From Candidatus Nomurabacteria bacterium (GTDB lineage: Bacteria > Patescibacteriota > Minisyncoccia > Phycocordibacterales > UBA10002), in contig CALQZP010000002.1 of NCBI GenBank assembly GCA_943349725.1, positions 1-45,102 on the forward strand: a DNA stretch of 45,102 bases, written 5' to 3'. Below the pieces are notes generated by a model, which did not search any database, was not told the origin of the DNA, and saw nothing but the letters and a program-made list of their open reading frames with translations. The position numbers and the translations under genes were made by a program. Position 1 is the stretch's first letter. Each line of letters opens with the position of its first letter. Shown here one piece after another: positions 36,911 through 41,310 of the stretch.

Positions 36911-37948
36911 CTACCTACCAAGCAATTTCTTTGTAGCTTGTTTGATGTGCTCAACCGTCATTCCGTAGTGAGCCAGGATTTCCTCCGGCTTGCCGGATTG
37001 CCCGAACACATCATTTACTCCGACAAACTCCATTGGAGTCGGATGTTTTTGCACTAGAAGCTCGGCCACCGCAGAGCCCATTCCTCCCATCACCTGATGT
37101 TCTTCAACGGTAACAATGCGCCCGCACTCTTTTGCAAGCTCTACGATTGCGTCTACATCAAGCGGTTTAATAGTAGCGAGATTGAGCACCGTGACAGCAA
37201 TTCCCTCTTCCTCAAGCTCTTTCGCCGCCAGGAGCGCCTTGTGCAAAAGTCCTCCTGTGCCTATTATTCCTACTTTATTCTTAATTCCTACCTGCCCGAC
37301 TGCCCCATTCAGGCGGGATTCATTATTCTGTGTTCGATAGAACACTTGCGCTTTCCCTATCTCAAACGGCGTGTCGTCCGTCGTGATAACGGGAGTCTTT
37401 TCACGCGCGAGACGAATGTAGGTCGGTGTTTTTGTTTTAGCGCAGGCGAGCGTTGCCTTCTTCGCTTCAATAGCGTCACACGGCGAAAGTACACACATAT
37501 TGGGAAGTACGCGCATAATTGCGAGGTCTTCAATGGCTTGGTGTGTTCCGCCGTCAGGACCCACGGAAACTCCCGCGTGCGAGCCAACAATCTTCACGGG
37601 GCGGTCGTTGTAGCAAATGGTGGTACGAATCTGCTCCCAGTTTCGTCCCGGGCTAAACATAGCGTACGAGCTACAGAACGGAATCTTGCCCATCGCGGCC
37701 ATACCGGAAGCGACGGTCACCAGGTTCTGCTCGGCAACACCCATTTCCACAAATCGGTTCGAGAACTTCTTCGCGAAAAGGTGCATCTGCGTAGACTCGG
37801 TAAGGTCGGCGCACAGTCCCACCACATTTTCATCCGCTTCTCCCGCAGCCAAAAGCCCCTCGCCGAACCCCTTACGAATCGGCACCTGTTCTACGTCCTT
37901 GTCCCAAATTTTGGGGTTGAGTTTTACGGCAGTGTTGAGCATCTTCAT
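36911..37948 (-). CDS. tkt: Transketolase, C-terminal half (pyrimidine-binding plus C-terminal domains)
   Basis: FVEMGVAEQNLVTVASGMA, GVSVGPDGGTHQAIEDLAIMRVLPN and IKPLD. Confidence 0.92.
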   Translation of the reverse strand: MKMLNTAVKLNPKIWDKDVEQVPIRKGFGEGLLAAGEADENVVGLCADLTESTQMHLFAKKFSNRFVEMGVAEQNLVTVASGMAAMGKIPFCSSYAMFSPGRNWEQIRTTICYNDRPVKIVGSHAGVSVGPDGGTHQAIEDLAIMRVLPNMCVLSPCDAIEAKKATLACAKTKTPTYIRLAREKTPVITTDDTPFEIGKAQVFYRTQNNESRLNGAVGQVGIKNKVGIIGTGGLLHKALLAAKELEEEGIAVTVLNLATIKPLDVDAIVELAKECGRIVTVEEHQVMGGMGSAVAELLVQKHPTPMEFVGVNDVFGQSGKPEEILAHYGMTVEHIKQATKKLLGR

Positions 37949-37951
37949 TAA

Positions 37952-38227
37952 TTAAATGAACATCTGTATAAAAGAAAAGAAAAGTAAAGTCCCAAAAATG
38001 ATATGTATTATTGCATACTGTCCACTTTGCAGTTCCTTTAACCCGAAAGATCGAAATGCAAATAAGATTTCAGCGATTAAAAAAATTGGAACCAAAAATA
38101 CGAATGCATACGCGACATATCCCCATAATTCACCGGCAAACAGGGGAAGCACGAGCAGAAAAGGGATACCGAACGCCAGGATAACTGCACACATGAGAGA
38201 AAGATTTGCTTTTGTGATGTTTTTCAT
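37952..38227 (-). CDS. Small membrane protein (3 predicted TM helices)
   Basis: Hydrophobic 91-aa ORF. Its stop lies 3 nt upstream of the tktC ATG. Confidence 0.5.
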   Translation of the reverse strand: MKNITKANLSLMCAVILAFGIPFLLVLPLFAGELWGYVAYAFVFLVPIFLIAEILFAFRSFGLKELQSGQYAIIHIIFGTLLFFSFIQMFI

Positions 38228-38262
38228 ACTCTTATATCAGTTGCCTACCCCCCCCATATTCC

Positions 38263-38529
38263 CTACTTAACCATCAATTTCAATCCCAGCCCCCCCGTCA
38301 CCTTTTTCAAAAAAGAAAGCGTGGGGTTTGTACGGCCAGATTCAAACCGCGCCAGCGCGGACTGCGCCAAACCGATTCTTTTTGCAAATTCCCGCTGCGT
38401 AAGTTTTTTGTTTATACGAGCTCGTATCAAAGCTTCGTATAGTTGAAATTCAAACTCAAGCTGCTCGTAAGCTTGCTTGCGTCTTGGGTCTTTTATGAGT
38501 TCATCATGTAATTGTTTACCGGTTTTCAT
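38263..38529 (-). CDS. higA: XRE-family HTH antitoxin (HigA-like)
   Basis: LTQREFAKRIGLAQSALARFESGRTNPTLSFLKKV is an HTH_XRE pattern. The gene lies directly downstream of a RelE/HigB-type toxin gene. Confidence 0.75.
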   Translation of the reverse strand: MKTGKQLHDELIKDPRRKQAYEQLEFEFQLYEALIRARINKKLTQREFAKRIGLAQSALARFESGRTNPTLSFLKKVTGGLGLKLMVK

Positions 38530-38558
38530 AACGTATCTATGATAACATATGTGTTATC

Positions 38559-38876
38559 TTATGCAAGTTCCACTACTTCCTTTTGGATTTTTCGAGCATA
38601 TGCCATATCCCGCAGAGAGATTTTTCCGGTTTTTTTGATAAAACCATGGATAACATACGCTTTATTATTCTTAAAAAGATAGAGAATTCTGACTTGCTTC
38701 TTCCCGTGTATCCGTAGTTCAAATAATCCTCTTCCTAAACTCTTTGAATCCGGCATATCAATAAGGTGTCCGACTCTTTCCAACACTTCCCTCGTCCTAT
38801 CTACTCGCATAGATGTTTCTGGATCTAGGTTTTTTATAAACTTTTCTATTTTTTCATTCCAATAAATTACTTCCAT
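38559..38876 (-). CDS. higB: RelE/ParE-superfamily toxin (HigB / Gp49-like)
   Basis: LGRGLFELRIHGKKQVRILYLFKNNKAYVIHGFIKKTGK is the typical Gp49/HigB pattern, and the toxin-first order is the HigBA arrangement. Confidence 0.75.
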   Translation of the reverse strand: MEVIYWNEKIEKFIKNLDPETSMRVDRTREVLERVGHLIDMPDSKSLGRGLFELRIHGKKQVRILYLFKNNKAYVIHGFIKKTGKISLRDMAYARKIQKEVVELA

Positions 38877-38880
38877 ACGG

Positions 38881-39000
38881 CTATTTTATTTTCTCAACGA
38901 ATCCTTTGCGAATCGGCACCTGTTCGACATCTTTGCCTACGGTGAACTTGTCGAATCCGTCCCAAATTTTGGGGTTGAGTTTTACGGCATTGTTTAGCAT
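38881..39000 (-). pseudogene. Remnant copy of the tktC 5' end (39-aa ORF)
   Basis: Encodes MLNNAVKLNPKIWDGFDKFTVGKDVEQVPIRKGF..., versus the real MKMLNTAVKLNPKIWDKDVEQVPIRKGF. It shares an identical 27-nt block GTAAAACTCAACCCCAAAATTTGGGAC. Its stop lies 4 nt before the higB ATG. Confidence 0.75.
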
Positions 39001-39028
39001 TTGACAAAAAAAAATGAGGCGTTATACT
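39001..39028 (+). promoter_or_regulatory. Near-consensus sigma70-type promoter pointing antisense into the MazF-like gene
   Basis: TTGACA-N16-TATACT on the plus strand. A GC hairpin CCCCCC-gcaa-GGGGGG lies about 25 nt downstream. Confidence 0.45.
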
Positions 39029-39075
39029 AGCACTACTTTTGGGATTTTCCCACGGCCCCCCGCAAGGGGGGAAAA

Positions 39076-39495
39076 TTATTTCTCCTTTCGGTGAGTGTAC
39101 AGATTTTCAAAACCAGCGCAGACTTTCTTCCAATCTTCGTCATCAATCTGTATAAGTTTACTTGATAATCGCCGATAATCAAAGTTCCGCGATTGATGGA
39201 GCAGAACCACGCTTGTTTTCGAGAAAAGCTTTATCGGAACGTACCAACTTCCTTTTTTGCTTTGTGAAGTCATCGGTATACCTAAAAATGAATAGGTACC
39301 TAGCTTTTTGTAGATTAAAACTGGTCTTGAGAATAACCTACTCTTTCCGTTAATTTCCGTGCCAATATTTTCTCCCAGACTACACCACCAGACTTCACCC
39401 TCCTTAAACAAAGGTGGGTTTGCCGTACTCTCATGCAGTTTCTCTTTCAACCCTATCCACTCCAAAAATCTTTTTACTGTTTTTACGACAATCAT
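39076..39495 (-). CDS. PemK/MazF-family toxin-like protein, no adjacent antitoxin gene
   Basis: FKEGEVWWCSLGENIGTEINGKSRLFSRPVLIY resembles the MazF/PemK N-terminal pattern. Start is placed at ATG 39495. Confidence 0.6.
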   Translation of the reverse strand: MIVVKTVKRFLEWIGLKEKLHESTANPPLFKEGEVWWCSLGENIGTEINGKSRLFSRPVLIYKKLGTYSFLGIPMTSQSKKGSWYVPIKLFSKTSVVLLHQSRNFDYRRLSSKLIQIDDEDWKKVCAGFENLYTHRKEK

Positions 39496-39500
39496 AGGGT

Positions 39501-39629
39501 TTAGGAAAATATCAAACGCTCTTCCCAAAATCCTTTCCGAATCGGCACCTGTTCGACATCTTTGCCTACGGTGAACTTGTCGAATCCGTCCCAAATTTTG
39601 GGGTTGAGTTTTACAGCGTGGTTTATCAT
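39501..39629 (-). pseudogene. Second remnant copy of the tktC 5' end (42-aa ORF)
   Basis: Encodes MINHAVKLNPKIWDGFDKFTVGKDVEQVPIRKGFWEERLIFS. It is nearly identical to the 38881-39000 copy, including the extra GFDKFTVG segment. Its stop lies 5 nt before the MazF-like ATG. Confidence 0.75.
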
Positions 39630-39632
39630 ATT

Positions 39633-39977
39633 TTATTTAGCAATAAGAAAAACCATAAAAAATACAAAAAGAAGCATAAGCAAGCAAAAAATACCTATAA
39701 GTCCTGGAAGGAGATTGAGGACCTTCGAGAAACCAGTGACATTATCAGCTCTATTCTTGGAAAAAGAAATCACAGAAACCCTGATCATTAAAAATATGAA
39801 GACAAGAAATGTTCCTAACAAATACAGGAGTGATATGGACTGGCCTCTTGTCTCTGTTTCGGGACTCATCGCTATACTTCCGATAATGGCAGGAAGAAAA
39901 AAGAGAATTATGGCTAAGATGTAGGCTCTTTTTGGTTTTGAAGATTGGTTTATCATTAAAAGTTTGCGTAATACCAA
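39633..39977 (-). CDS. Small membrane protein
   Basis: Hydrophobic ORF with 3 predicted TM helices. Its stop lies 3 nt upstream of the remnant tktC start, which mirrors the geometry of 37952-38227 relative to the real tktC. Confidence 0.5.
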   Translation of the reverse strand: MVLRKLLMINQSSKPKRAYILAIILFFLPAIIGSIAMSPETETRGQSISLLYLLGTFLVFIFLMIRVSVISFSKNRADNVTGFSKVLNLLPGLIGIFCLLMLLFVFFMVFLIAK

Positions 39978-40273
39978 TAAGAATAAAAAAGGCCGTAAAC
40001 ACTAAAAGCAAATGTGCCGACTGCTATGGGAATTAATATCGCTCCAGTGACGATATAGACTAACCGTGATTTGCCCTCCCGTAATTTCCTTCGTATTACC
40101 AGAAAAGATTGTATAGCAATCAAAAGAGATAGTCCGGAAATGAAAATATCTGTTGCACGACCGAATGAATAAGCAAACAACTCTCCTCTTTCGCCATGGT
40201 TAAAGAAGAAGATAATCAGGACGAACCAGAGAATTATATAGCTCACCCACCACGTTTTCTTGAAGAAAGTCAT
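39956..40273 (-). CDS. Small membrane protein
   Basis: Hydrophobic 105-aa ORF. Its ATG overlaps the TGA of the tktN remnant (ATGA). Confidence 0.5.
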   Translation of the reverse strand: MTFFKKTWWVSYIILWFVLIIFFFNHGERGELFAYSFGRATDIFISGLSLLIAIQSFLVIRRKLREGKSRLVYIVTGAILIPIAVGTFAFSVYGLFYSYWYYANF

Positions 40274-40383
40274 ATATTTTGTGAAATTTGCTTACCGAGT
40301 TCGTCAAGGACTTTCAGGGCCATCGCACACTCCTCCTTGTTCCGGGGCTTGCCCCCACACCAAAAGCAAAATATATACTTCAT
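40270..40383 (-). pseudogene. Remnant copy of the tktN 3' end (37-aa ORF)
   Basis: Encodes ...FWCGGKPRNKEECAMALKVLDELGKQISQNI, versus the real C-terminus FEWHGKPPTPKEGEMALAVLRKLGKELNK. Confidence 0.6.
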
Positions 40384-40386
40384 ACT

Positions 40387-41310
40387 TTATTTGTTAAGTT
40401 CTTTACCTAGCTTTCGTAATACCGCTAAAGCCATTTCTCCCTCTTTTGGTGTCGGGGGCTTGCCGTGCCACTCAAACTTGCGTTCAAAGTCGGGAACACC
40501 CTTCCCTGGAATCGTATTTGCAATGATGACGGTGGGTTTGTCGAACTCGGCTTTGGCTTCACCAATCGCGCGGTGAATGTCCGCGAAGTCGTGCCCGTTC
40601 ACTTCAATCACGTGCCAGTTGAATGCCTGCCACTTATCGGAAAGTGGCTCAAGAGGCATAATGTCCTCGGTGAAGCCGTCTATCTGAATATTGTTGCGGT
40701 CTACAATGGCAATGAGATTACCGAGCTTTTCTTTCCCCGCGAGCATCGCGCCTTCCCAACTGTTTCCCTCTTCAAGTTCTCCGTCTGAAAGAAGCGCGTA
40801 AAACCATTTCTTATAGGAACGCCCCGCGTCAATACGCTCCGCAAGCGCCATACCGACCGCTTGCGAGAGGCCGGAGCCGAGCGGACCCGATGAGGTTTCA
40901 AGCGCGGGAATATATTCGCGGTGCGGATGTCCCTGAAAAATACTGCCGTATTTGCGGAGACTCTTTGTAAACTGTTCTACTCCATCCTTGCCGAAGTATC
41001 CCGCGTGCGCCATCGCCGAATACAGTACGGGACAGATATGTCCGTTTGAAAGTACAAGGCGGTCGCGTTCTGCCCAGTCGGGCTTCTTCGGGTCGTGACG
41101 CATTTCGTGGAAATACAGGTATGCGAAAATATCGGCCATACCGAGTGGTCCCGCGGTGTGTCCCGAACCCGCCTCAACGAGCGCTTCAATAAGCGAAATG
41201 CGAATGTCGTTCGCCTTCTTGGCGAGTTTCTGTATGTCCGCATCCGTAAGGTGCGTGTCGCTGGGGTTGTGGACACCATTGTGGTCTTTATCATCGAGAG
41301 TATGGGTCAT
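40387..41310 (-). CDS. tkt: Transketolase, N-terminal half (TPP-binding)
   Basis: GSGHTAGPLGMADIFAYLYF, SNGHICPVLYSAMA and LLSDGELEEGNSWEG. Confidence 0.92.
   Translation of the reverse strand: MTHTLDDKDHNGVHNPSDTHLTDADIQKLAKKANDIRISLIEALVEAGSGHTAGPLGMADIFAYLYFHEMRHDPKKPDWAERDRLVLSNGHICPVLYSAMAHAGYFGKDGVEQFTKSLRKYGSIFQGHPHREYIPALETSSGPLGSGLSQAVGMALAERIDAGRSYKKWFYALLSDGELEEGNSWEGAMLAGKEKLGNLIAIVDRNNIQIDGFTEDIMPLEPLSDKWQAFNWHVIEVNGHDFADIHRAIGEAKAEFDKPTVIIANTIPGKGVPDFERKFEWHGKPPTPKEGEMALAVLRKLGKELNK

Follow-up and report, generated by a model that had tools for sequence, protein, structure and literature searches.

A probable composite accessory islet with relics of both transketolase gene ends between tktN and tktC on a Paceibacteria chromosome

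In the window (the whole stretch of 45,102 nucleotides analyzed here), the genes for the two subunits of a split transketolase, tktN and tktC, are separated by 2,438 nt (positions 37949–40386). The ORF list and family profiles place the features of this region on the minus strand, except for a predicted convergent small-RNA gene. Listed from tktN to tktC, they are as follows (L and P numbers denote the genomes, contigs and loci compared):

40387–41310, minus strand: tktN, transketolase N-terminal subunit (Pfam PF00456, E 9e-66)
40270–40383, minus strand: tktN 3' relic, a 37-codon ORF (tblastn to relatives; alignments)
39956–40273, minus strand: mem1, small membrane ORF of 105 aa (ORF; no family)
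39633–39956, minus strand: mem2, small membrane ORF of 107 aa (ORF; gene call in L001; no family)
39501–39629, minus strand: tktC 5' relic C (DNA profile, E 1e-11)
39076–39495, minus strand: PemK/MazF-family toxin gene (mazF), 139 aa (Pfam PF02452, E 7e-11)
39001–39081, plus strand: predicted convergent small-RNA gene, putative RNA antitoxin (promoter/terminator scan, conservation)
38881–39000, minus strand: tktC 5' relic B (DNA profile, E 8e-11)
38559–38876, minus strand: higB, RelE/ParE-superfamily toxin of the Gp49 type (Pfam PF05973, E 4e-16)
38263–38529, minus strand: higA, HTH_3 antitoxin (Pfam PF01381, E 3e-13)
37952–38227, minus strand: mem3, small membrane ORF of 80–91 aa (ORF and gene call; no family)
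36911–37948, minus strand: tktC, transketolase C-terminal subunit, intact (Pfam PF02779 and PF02780)

All features that the preliminary description had claimed between tktN and tktC were confirmed at these positions, and the AT-richness it had noted is reflected in a GC content of 0.34–0.44 in the gap versus 0.49–0.56 in the tkt genes. Because all islet genes face the same way with little space between them, tktC remains part of the operon. No recombinase, integrase or transposase was found among the window ORFs at 1–26 kb and 29–45 kb, nor in the islet itself. Pilin-like genes are also present in the window. The DNA between tktN and tktC is probably a composite accessory islet that lies within the pentose-phosphate operon of a groundwater bacterium, on a chromosome of the Paceibacteria (Patescibacteria/CPR).

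An assembly chimera had been named beforehand as something that would refute the interpretation. The islet is not a chimera, because its sequence recurs at ~100% identity in four other assemblies. It is true that up to 60 nt are identical between the relics and that the short-read contig L004 ends inside relic C, as might be expected if collapsed strain variants had been joined where the tktC 5' sequence is repeated. However, the islet is complete in two MEGAHIT contigs of different samples (99.99% identity), two Logan contigs of different runs agree with it at 100%, and similar relic-bearing islets are found in many unrelated assemblies, making an artifact extremely improbable.

The tktC relics were identified with a DNA profile built on 126 nt of the tktC 5' end in 77 relatives, searched against ~1 Mb of sequence. 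Apart from relics B and C, all other secondary matches of this profile were also located within tktN–tktC gaps. Both relics match the 5' end of the resident tktC except for a 24-nt insertion encoding eight codons (GFDKFTVG), and they share 95% identity over 101 nt, in line with the earlier description of the second copy as almost identical. Relic C consists of tktC codons 1–31 plus the 8-codon insertion, followed by three foreign codons and a stop 5 nt ahead of the mazF start. Relic B consists of codons 1–26 plus the insertion, followed by VEKIK and a stop 4 nt ahead of the higB start. Since both relic ORFs end so close to the start of their cargo gene, they are probably leader ORFs for translational coupling of the cargo. 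Relic types are restricted to tktC 5' and tktN 3' ends; relics of tktN 5', tktC 3' or rpe 3' ends were looked for, and none was found.

The proposal that the relics derive from a different allele was borne out. Full-length tktC genes with the same insertion occur in P0109/L088 (GFDKLTAG) and P0194, and in one relative a full-length gene of the insertion type (hereafter tktC*) sits directly behind a mazF homolog. Window positions 39629–38893 are colinear with L088, relic B corresponding to the 5' end of the full-length tktC* there, and the joint between relic C and mazF, after GEGLL, lies at the identical position in L088 and L090. tktC 5' relics are present in at least 10 other genomes. Insertion-allele relics in L086 and L087 are 85–92% identical to those of the window and precede different cargo, while the tktC genes of L086 and the window share only 81% identity. 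The 5' end of the resident tktC is itself a mosaic: over its first 41 nt it shares 95% identity with relic B, and over the ~50 nt that follow it shares 92% with L091 and 75% with relic B.

The tktN 3' relic is homologous to tktN C-termini over about the last 27 codons. Its similarity to the resident gene is weak at the DNA level (nhmmer profile, E 0.1 in 1 Mb). In tblastn searches, 19 of 23 residues (83%, E 6e-9) matched the tktN C-terminus of L091 (GKPPNKEEGAMALKVL), and the tktN ends of L089 and L090 were matched as well. The last ~25 codons of the resident tktN (PTPKEGEMALAVLRKLGKELNK) are atypical for the clade. The stop codon of the relic overlaps the start of mem1 (ATATGA). The preliminary description had regarded the unit tktN'–mem1–mem2–tktC' as an imported copy of the junction; it looks like the older resident junction instead. 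The counter-evidence is threefold: in alignments, the clade consensus is nearer to the tktN relic than to the resident tktN end; the relic C/mazF joint recurs in L088 and L090 without a shift in position; and L172 contains mem1–tktC'–mazF without the remaining parts.

The mazF start is located at 39495, and a 172-aa ORF beginning at TTG is an artifact that reads through relic C. A profile of four MazF homologs matched the Bacillus subtilis EndoA/YdcE structures in the PDB (E 2e-6), and homologs are found at the tktN|tktC junction of L038, L088, L090, L092–L097 and others. No MazE/PemI-type protein antitoxin gene was found adjoining mazF in the window or in the relatives: the upstream neighbor is the tktC relic, whose ORF is not conserved as a protein and is degenerate in L038, and the downstream sequence is non-coding. 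However, the 75 nt that separate mazF from relic B are not empty. They harbor a conserved, predicted convergent small-RNA gene with a −35 element (TTGACA, 39001–39006), a −10 element (TATACT, 39023–39028), hairpin A (39041–39051), terminator hairpin B (39056–39071) and a U-rich tail to ~39081, which overlaps the mazF stop codon (39076–39078). This module follows mazF at 75 of 83 homologous loci. In an alignment of 57 distinct copies, the −35 and −10 elements are invariant, hairpin A covaries through compensatory changes, and hairpin B is present in every copy in 49 different sequences and is followed by a T-tail; a strand test gave p 1.5e-7. The small-RNA gene matched no Rfam family. The toxin gene, paired with a convergent RNA of ~47 nt as putative antitoxin, appears to form a type I-like toxin–antitoxin module. 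An “orphan” MazF was also considered and was rejected, since the small-RNA gene accompanies the toxin gene.

Beyond relic B, a RelE/ParE-fold toxin gene is located directly upstream of an HTH antitoxin gene at a spacing of 29 nt, and this HigBA is a type II toxin–antitoxin pair. Homologs with 58–77% identity occupy the same junction in L016, L070 and L100 for HigB, and in L016, L070, L075, L091, L097, L100, L105 and L137 for HigA. Two HigB subtypes (31–37% identity) pair with one HigA type. The three small membrane ORFs matched no family in Pfam, NCBIfam or PADLOC. mem1 is lineage-restricted: its single homolog in 5.8 billion proteins (63% identity) belongs to L172, where its neighbors are a tktC relic and a pseudogene of mazF. 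The probable start codon of mem2 is the ATG at 39956, which overlaps the mem1 stop (TAATG), and mem3 ends 3 nt ahead of tktC. A small membrane ORF also follows higA in L016, L100 and L137, but it is unrelated to mem3.

Comparison of the junction across relatives, which had been suggested at the outset, revealed a recurrent insertion site with alternative contents. tktN and tktC are at most ~110 nt apart in 59 of 77 related species (median gap, 13 nt), and inserts of 137–1374 nt are present in 18 of the 77. The insert-bearing species are scattered over the tkt tree, beside sisters with adjacent tktN and tktC. HigBA, MazF and small membrane proteins are the recurrent cargo; a NUDIX gene, Bro-N, an IS200-like gene and a secreted protein also occur. 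Among the closest relatives (81–86% tktC identity), the junction is empty in L089 and reads relic–mazF–tktC in L090, higBA–tktC in L091 and relic*–mazF–tktC* in L088. The islet is a concatenation of units that are found singly elsewhere. The earlier idea of accretion at one hotspot holds for recurrent insertion, but a single hotspot is overstated because rpe|tktN is equally variable, with inserts of >130 nt in 19 of 67 species versus 18 of 77 at tktN|tktC. What is special about tktN|tktC in comparison to rpe|tktN is its relics. Counted by event, relic joints lie after codons 14–15, 16, 19, 25, 26, 31 and 32, and only two joints are shared: that of mazF (window, L088 and L090) and that of the codon-16 hairpin group (L028, L067 and L082).

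A scenario without accretion would be a large ancestral islet (HigBA, membrane genes and relic–mazF) inherited vertically, lineages differing by loss and internal rearrangement. Indeed, the divergence of MazF and HigA follows that of tkt, with L038 the most distant in both. As HigBA and MazF divergence thus roughly tracks tkt divergence, old vertical inheritance with many losses could explain much of the patchiness; the flanking repeats would ease clean loss, and the order tktN–HigBA–membrane–relic–mazF–tktC recurs in L100, L105 and L137. Yet, the second relic and the reversed order in the window (mazF before HigBA) are left unexplained, as are the two HigB subtypes with one HigA type, the insertion-allele relics before unrelated cargo in L086 and L087, and the mosaic structure at the start of the resident tktC. 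Together with the spread of inserts over the whole tree next to empty sisters, these observations make a purely vertical islet very improbable.

The islet more probably originated from successive exchanges with relatives, each relying on homology within one tkt gene and on an illegitimate join within the end of the resident gene. The donors would be relatives whose own tktN|tktC junction contained different cargo, and the build-up would be stepwise. At each step, one conserved tkt gene would serve as the homology anchor, the other end being joined illegitimately in the resident gene end; the incoming DNA would bring a new gene end along, and the resident one that it displaced would remain as a short relic. 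Starting from tktN(old)–mem1–mem2–tktC*, the mazF and small-RNA module would have been placed after codon 31 of tktC*, giving relic C. This would be an old event, because L088 and L090 have the joint in the same place. A fragment comprising higB–higA–mem3–tktC (5' part) would have replaced tktC* from about codon 26, giving relic B, and the last ~25 codons of tktN would have been replaced independently, giving the tktN relic. The two near-identical tktC relics would require one further import, not two, as L088 already has the arrangement relic–mazF–tktC* with the insertion in both copies. A direct sign of an illegitimate join is the chimeric relic downstream of mazF in L094, in which tktC codons 1–19 are fused to the last 24 codons of tktN. 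Since a one-sided exchange needs a donor with cargo already at the junction, it does not account for the first arrival of each cargo. We infer this order of events and the joining mechanism alongside an anatomy, relics, a donor-type allele, alternative junction states and small-RNA gene signals that are directly observed.

The repeat–cargo–repeat topology is also exactly what a single crossover yields. Cargo with ~100 nt of tktC 5' sequence might loop out and re-enter the tktC 5' end by a Campbell-type crossover without any recombinase, a second entry creating an array; alternatively, tandem duplication of cargo plus tktC 5' end followed by decay gives the same pattern. Several observations agree with this unlikely alternative. 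Three to four genomes have the relic/mazF joint in the same place, and each relic matches the next downstream copy in insertion state (present in both in L088, absent from both in L090, present in both relics C and B of the window). Direct repeats flank 16 of 57 mazF loci, 10 of these 16 outside tkt, and several mazF loci contain two modules or partial modules. However, such cycling depends on a circular double-stranded intermediate that no evidence supports, and it cannot carry a unit to a locus without homology. In addition, HigBA has no upstream relic in L016, L070, L075 and L091, and the tktC'|tktN' chimera of L094 is not the product of a homologous crossover. It is quite unlikely that the mazF and small-RNA unit (~0.55 kb) is a mobile Patescibacteria cassette without its own recombinase that enters gene ends at many chromosomal sites and duplicates 25–180 nt of target, the tktC 5' sequence acting as a portable homology-based landing pad on which cassettes pile up; if true, it would be a recombinase-free analog of an integron inside an essential operon. 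At L131 and L157, two of the mazF loci that do not lie at tkt, the small-RNA promoter is partly contained in the flanking repeat, a feature not predicted by a simple exchange model.

The position of the joints bears on site-specific integration, in which a recombinase encoded elsewhere would target the first ~100 nt of tktC and the relics would be attL/attR-type repeats. Each unit is bounded by direct repeats from the target gene end, and all joints cluster in this segment, within tktC codons 14–41. The exact codon-16 joint is found in three species beside a hairpin with conserved ends and a variable stem, which could mean a preferred site, and several full-length genes have in-frame insertions at the same codon. 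Nevertheless, this mechanism is improbable: integrases and transposases are absent from the scanned window ORFs and the relatives' islets, with an IS200-like gene in L059 as the sole exception; the joints differ among independent events and have no common core; the left edge of every relic is the start codon; and the cargo units have no common end sequences, the mazF small-RNA module excepted.

CPR/Patescibacteria have very small genomes with few recognizable mobile elements, and to our knowledge, their gain of accessory genes is poorly understood. If the islet was built by successive homology-anchored exchanges, the gene-end relics are a readable record of cargo added stepwise inside an essential conserved operon, apparently via exchange with relatives and not by dedicated integrases. 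The pattern is seen in dozens of species and could therefore be mined to measure recombination in uncultivated lineages. The conserved convergent small RNA of this widespread “orphan” MazF-like toxin changes the annotation of such genes, and the pairing would place a protein RNase toxin among the few known type I-like systems. If cargo translation is truly driven by the relic ORFs, gene debris has been reused as expression signals.

Integration hotspots are reportedly occupied by islets between conserved core genes. The present islet resembles these in its AT-rich variable genes at one position, conserved flanks, varying presence or absence and frequent toxin–antitoxin cargo. It differs in lying between the halves of a split enzyme within an operon, in cargo that is tiny (0.1–2.4 kb), always co-oriented and free of mobility genes, and in boundaries that are relics of the flanking genes, with rpe|tktN equally variable. 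Homology-facilitated illegitimate recombination is said to occur in natural transformation, where homology fixes one end and the other is joined at a site without homology, which would explain a relic beside a fresh gene end as well as the L094 chimera. The mosaic tktC 5' end, the relics and this chimera are consistent with it; we know of no demonstration of the process in CPR bacteria. ICE/CIME and integron cassette arrays are similar in their serial units, each with a repeat that derives from or resembles the target, and in their common toxin–antitoxin cassettes. Unlike them, the islet has no integrase, conserved crossover core or attC-like cassette ends, and its joints vary; a repeat search found no attC-like imperfect palindromes at the unit ends.

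For the mazF module, convergent RNAs are familiar from the pAD1 par locus, with RNAI and RNAII. As PMC7826846 and PMC10470494 describe, citing Shen et al. 2016 (Mol Microbiol 101:909), the plasmid pVir of Campylobacter jejuni 81-176 carries the antisense-RNA type I system CjrA. Common to both are a toxin gene without a protein antitoxin, a short convergent RNA from just downstream and a terminator at the toxin 3' end. The window toxin is 32.5% identical to a PemK/MazF-family gene of pVir, an ORF possibly other than the published toxin, and a convergent promoter and terminator are located at the corresponding position downstream of that gene. The published pVir toxin is, we assume, CjpT. However, the two RNAs are not related in sequence (the module profile gave E 0.36 on pVir), and the CPR RNA is shorter (~47–60 nt) and in the window overlaps only the region of the mazF stop codon. 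The toxin shares the PemK/MazF fold family signature with type II MazEF/PemIK systems but lacks a MazE/PemI gene, the upstream ORF being a non-conserved tktC relic. Finally, HigBA resembles typical type II pairs in its toxin-first order, Gp49/RelE-type toxin and HTH_3 antitoxin, and is distinguished by its recurrent place directly upstream of tktC and by two HigB subtypes swapped on one HigA type.

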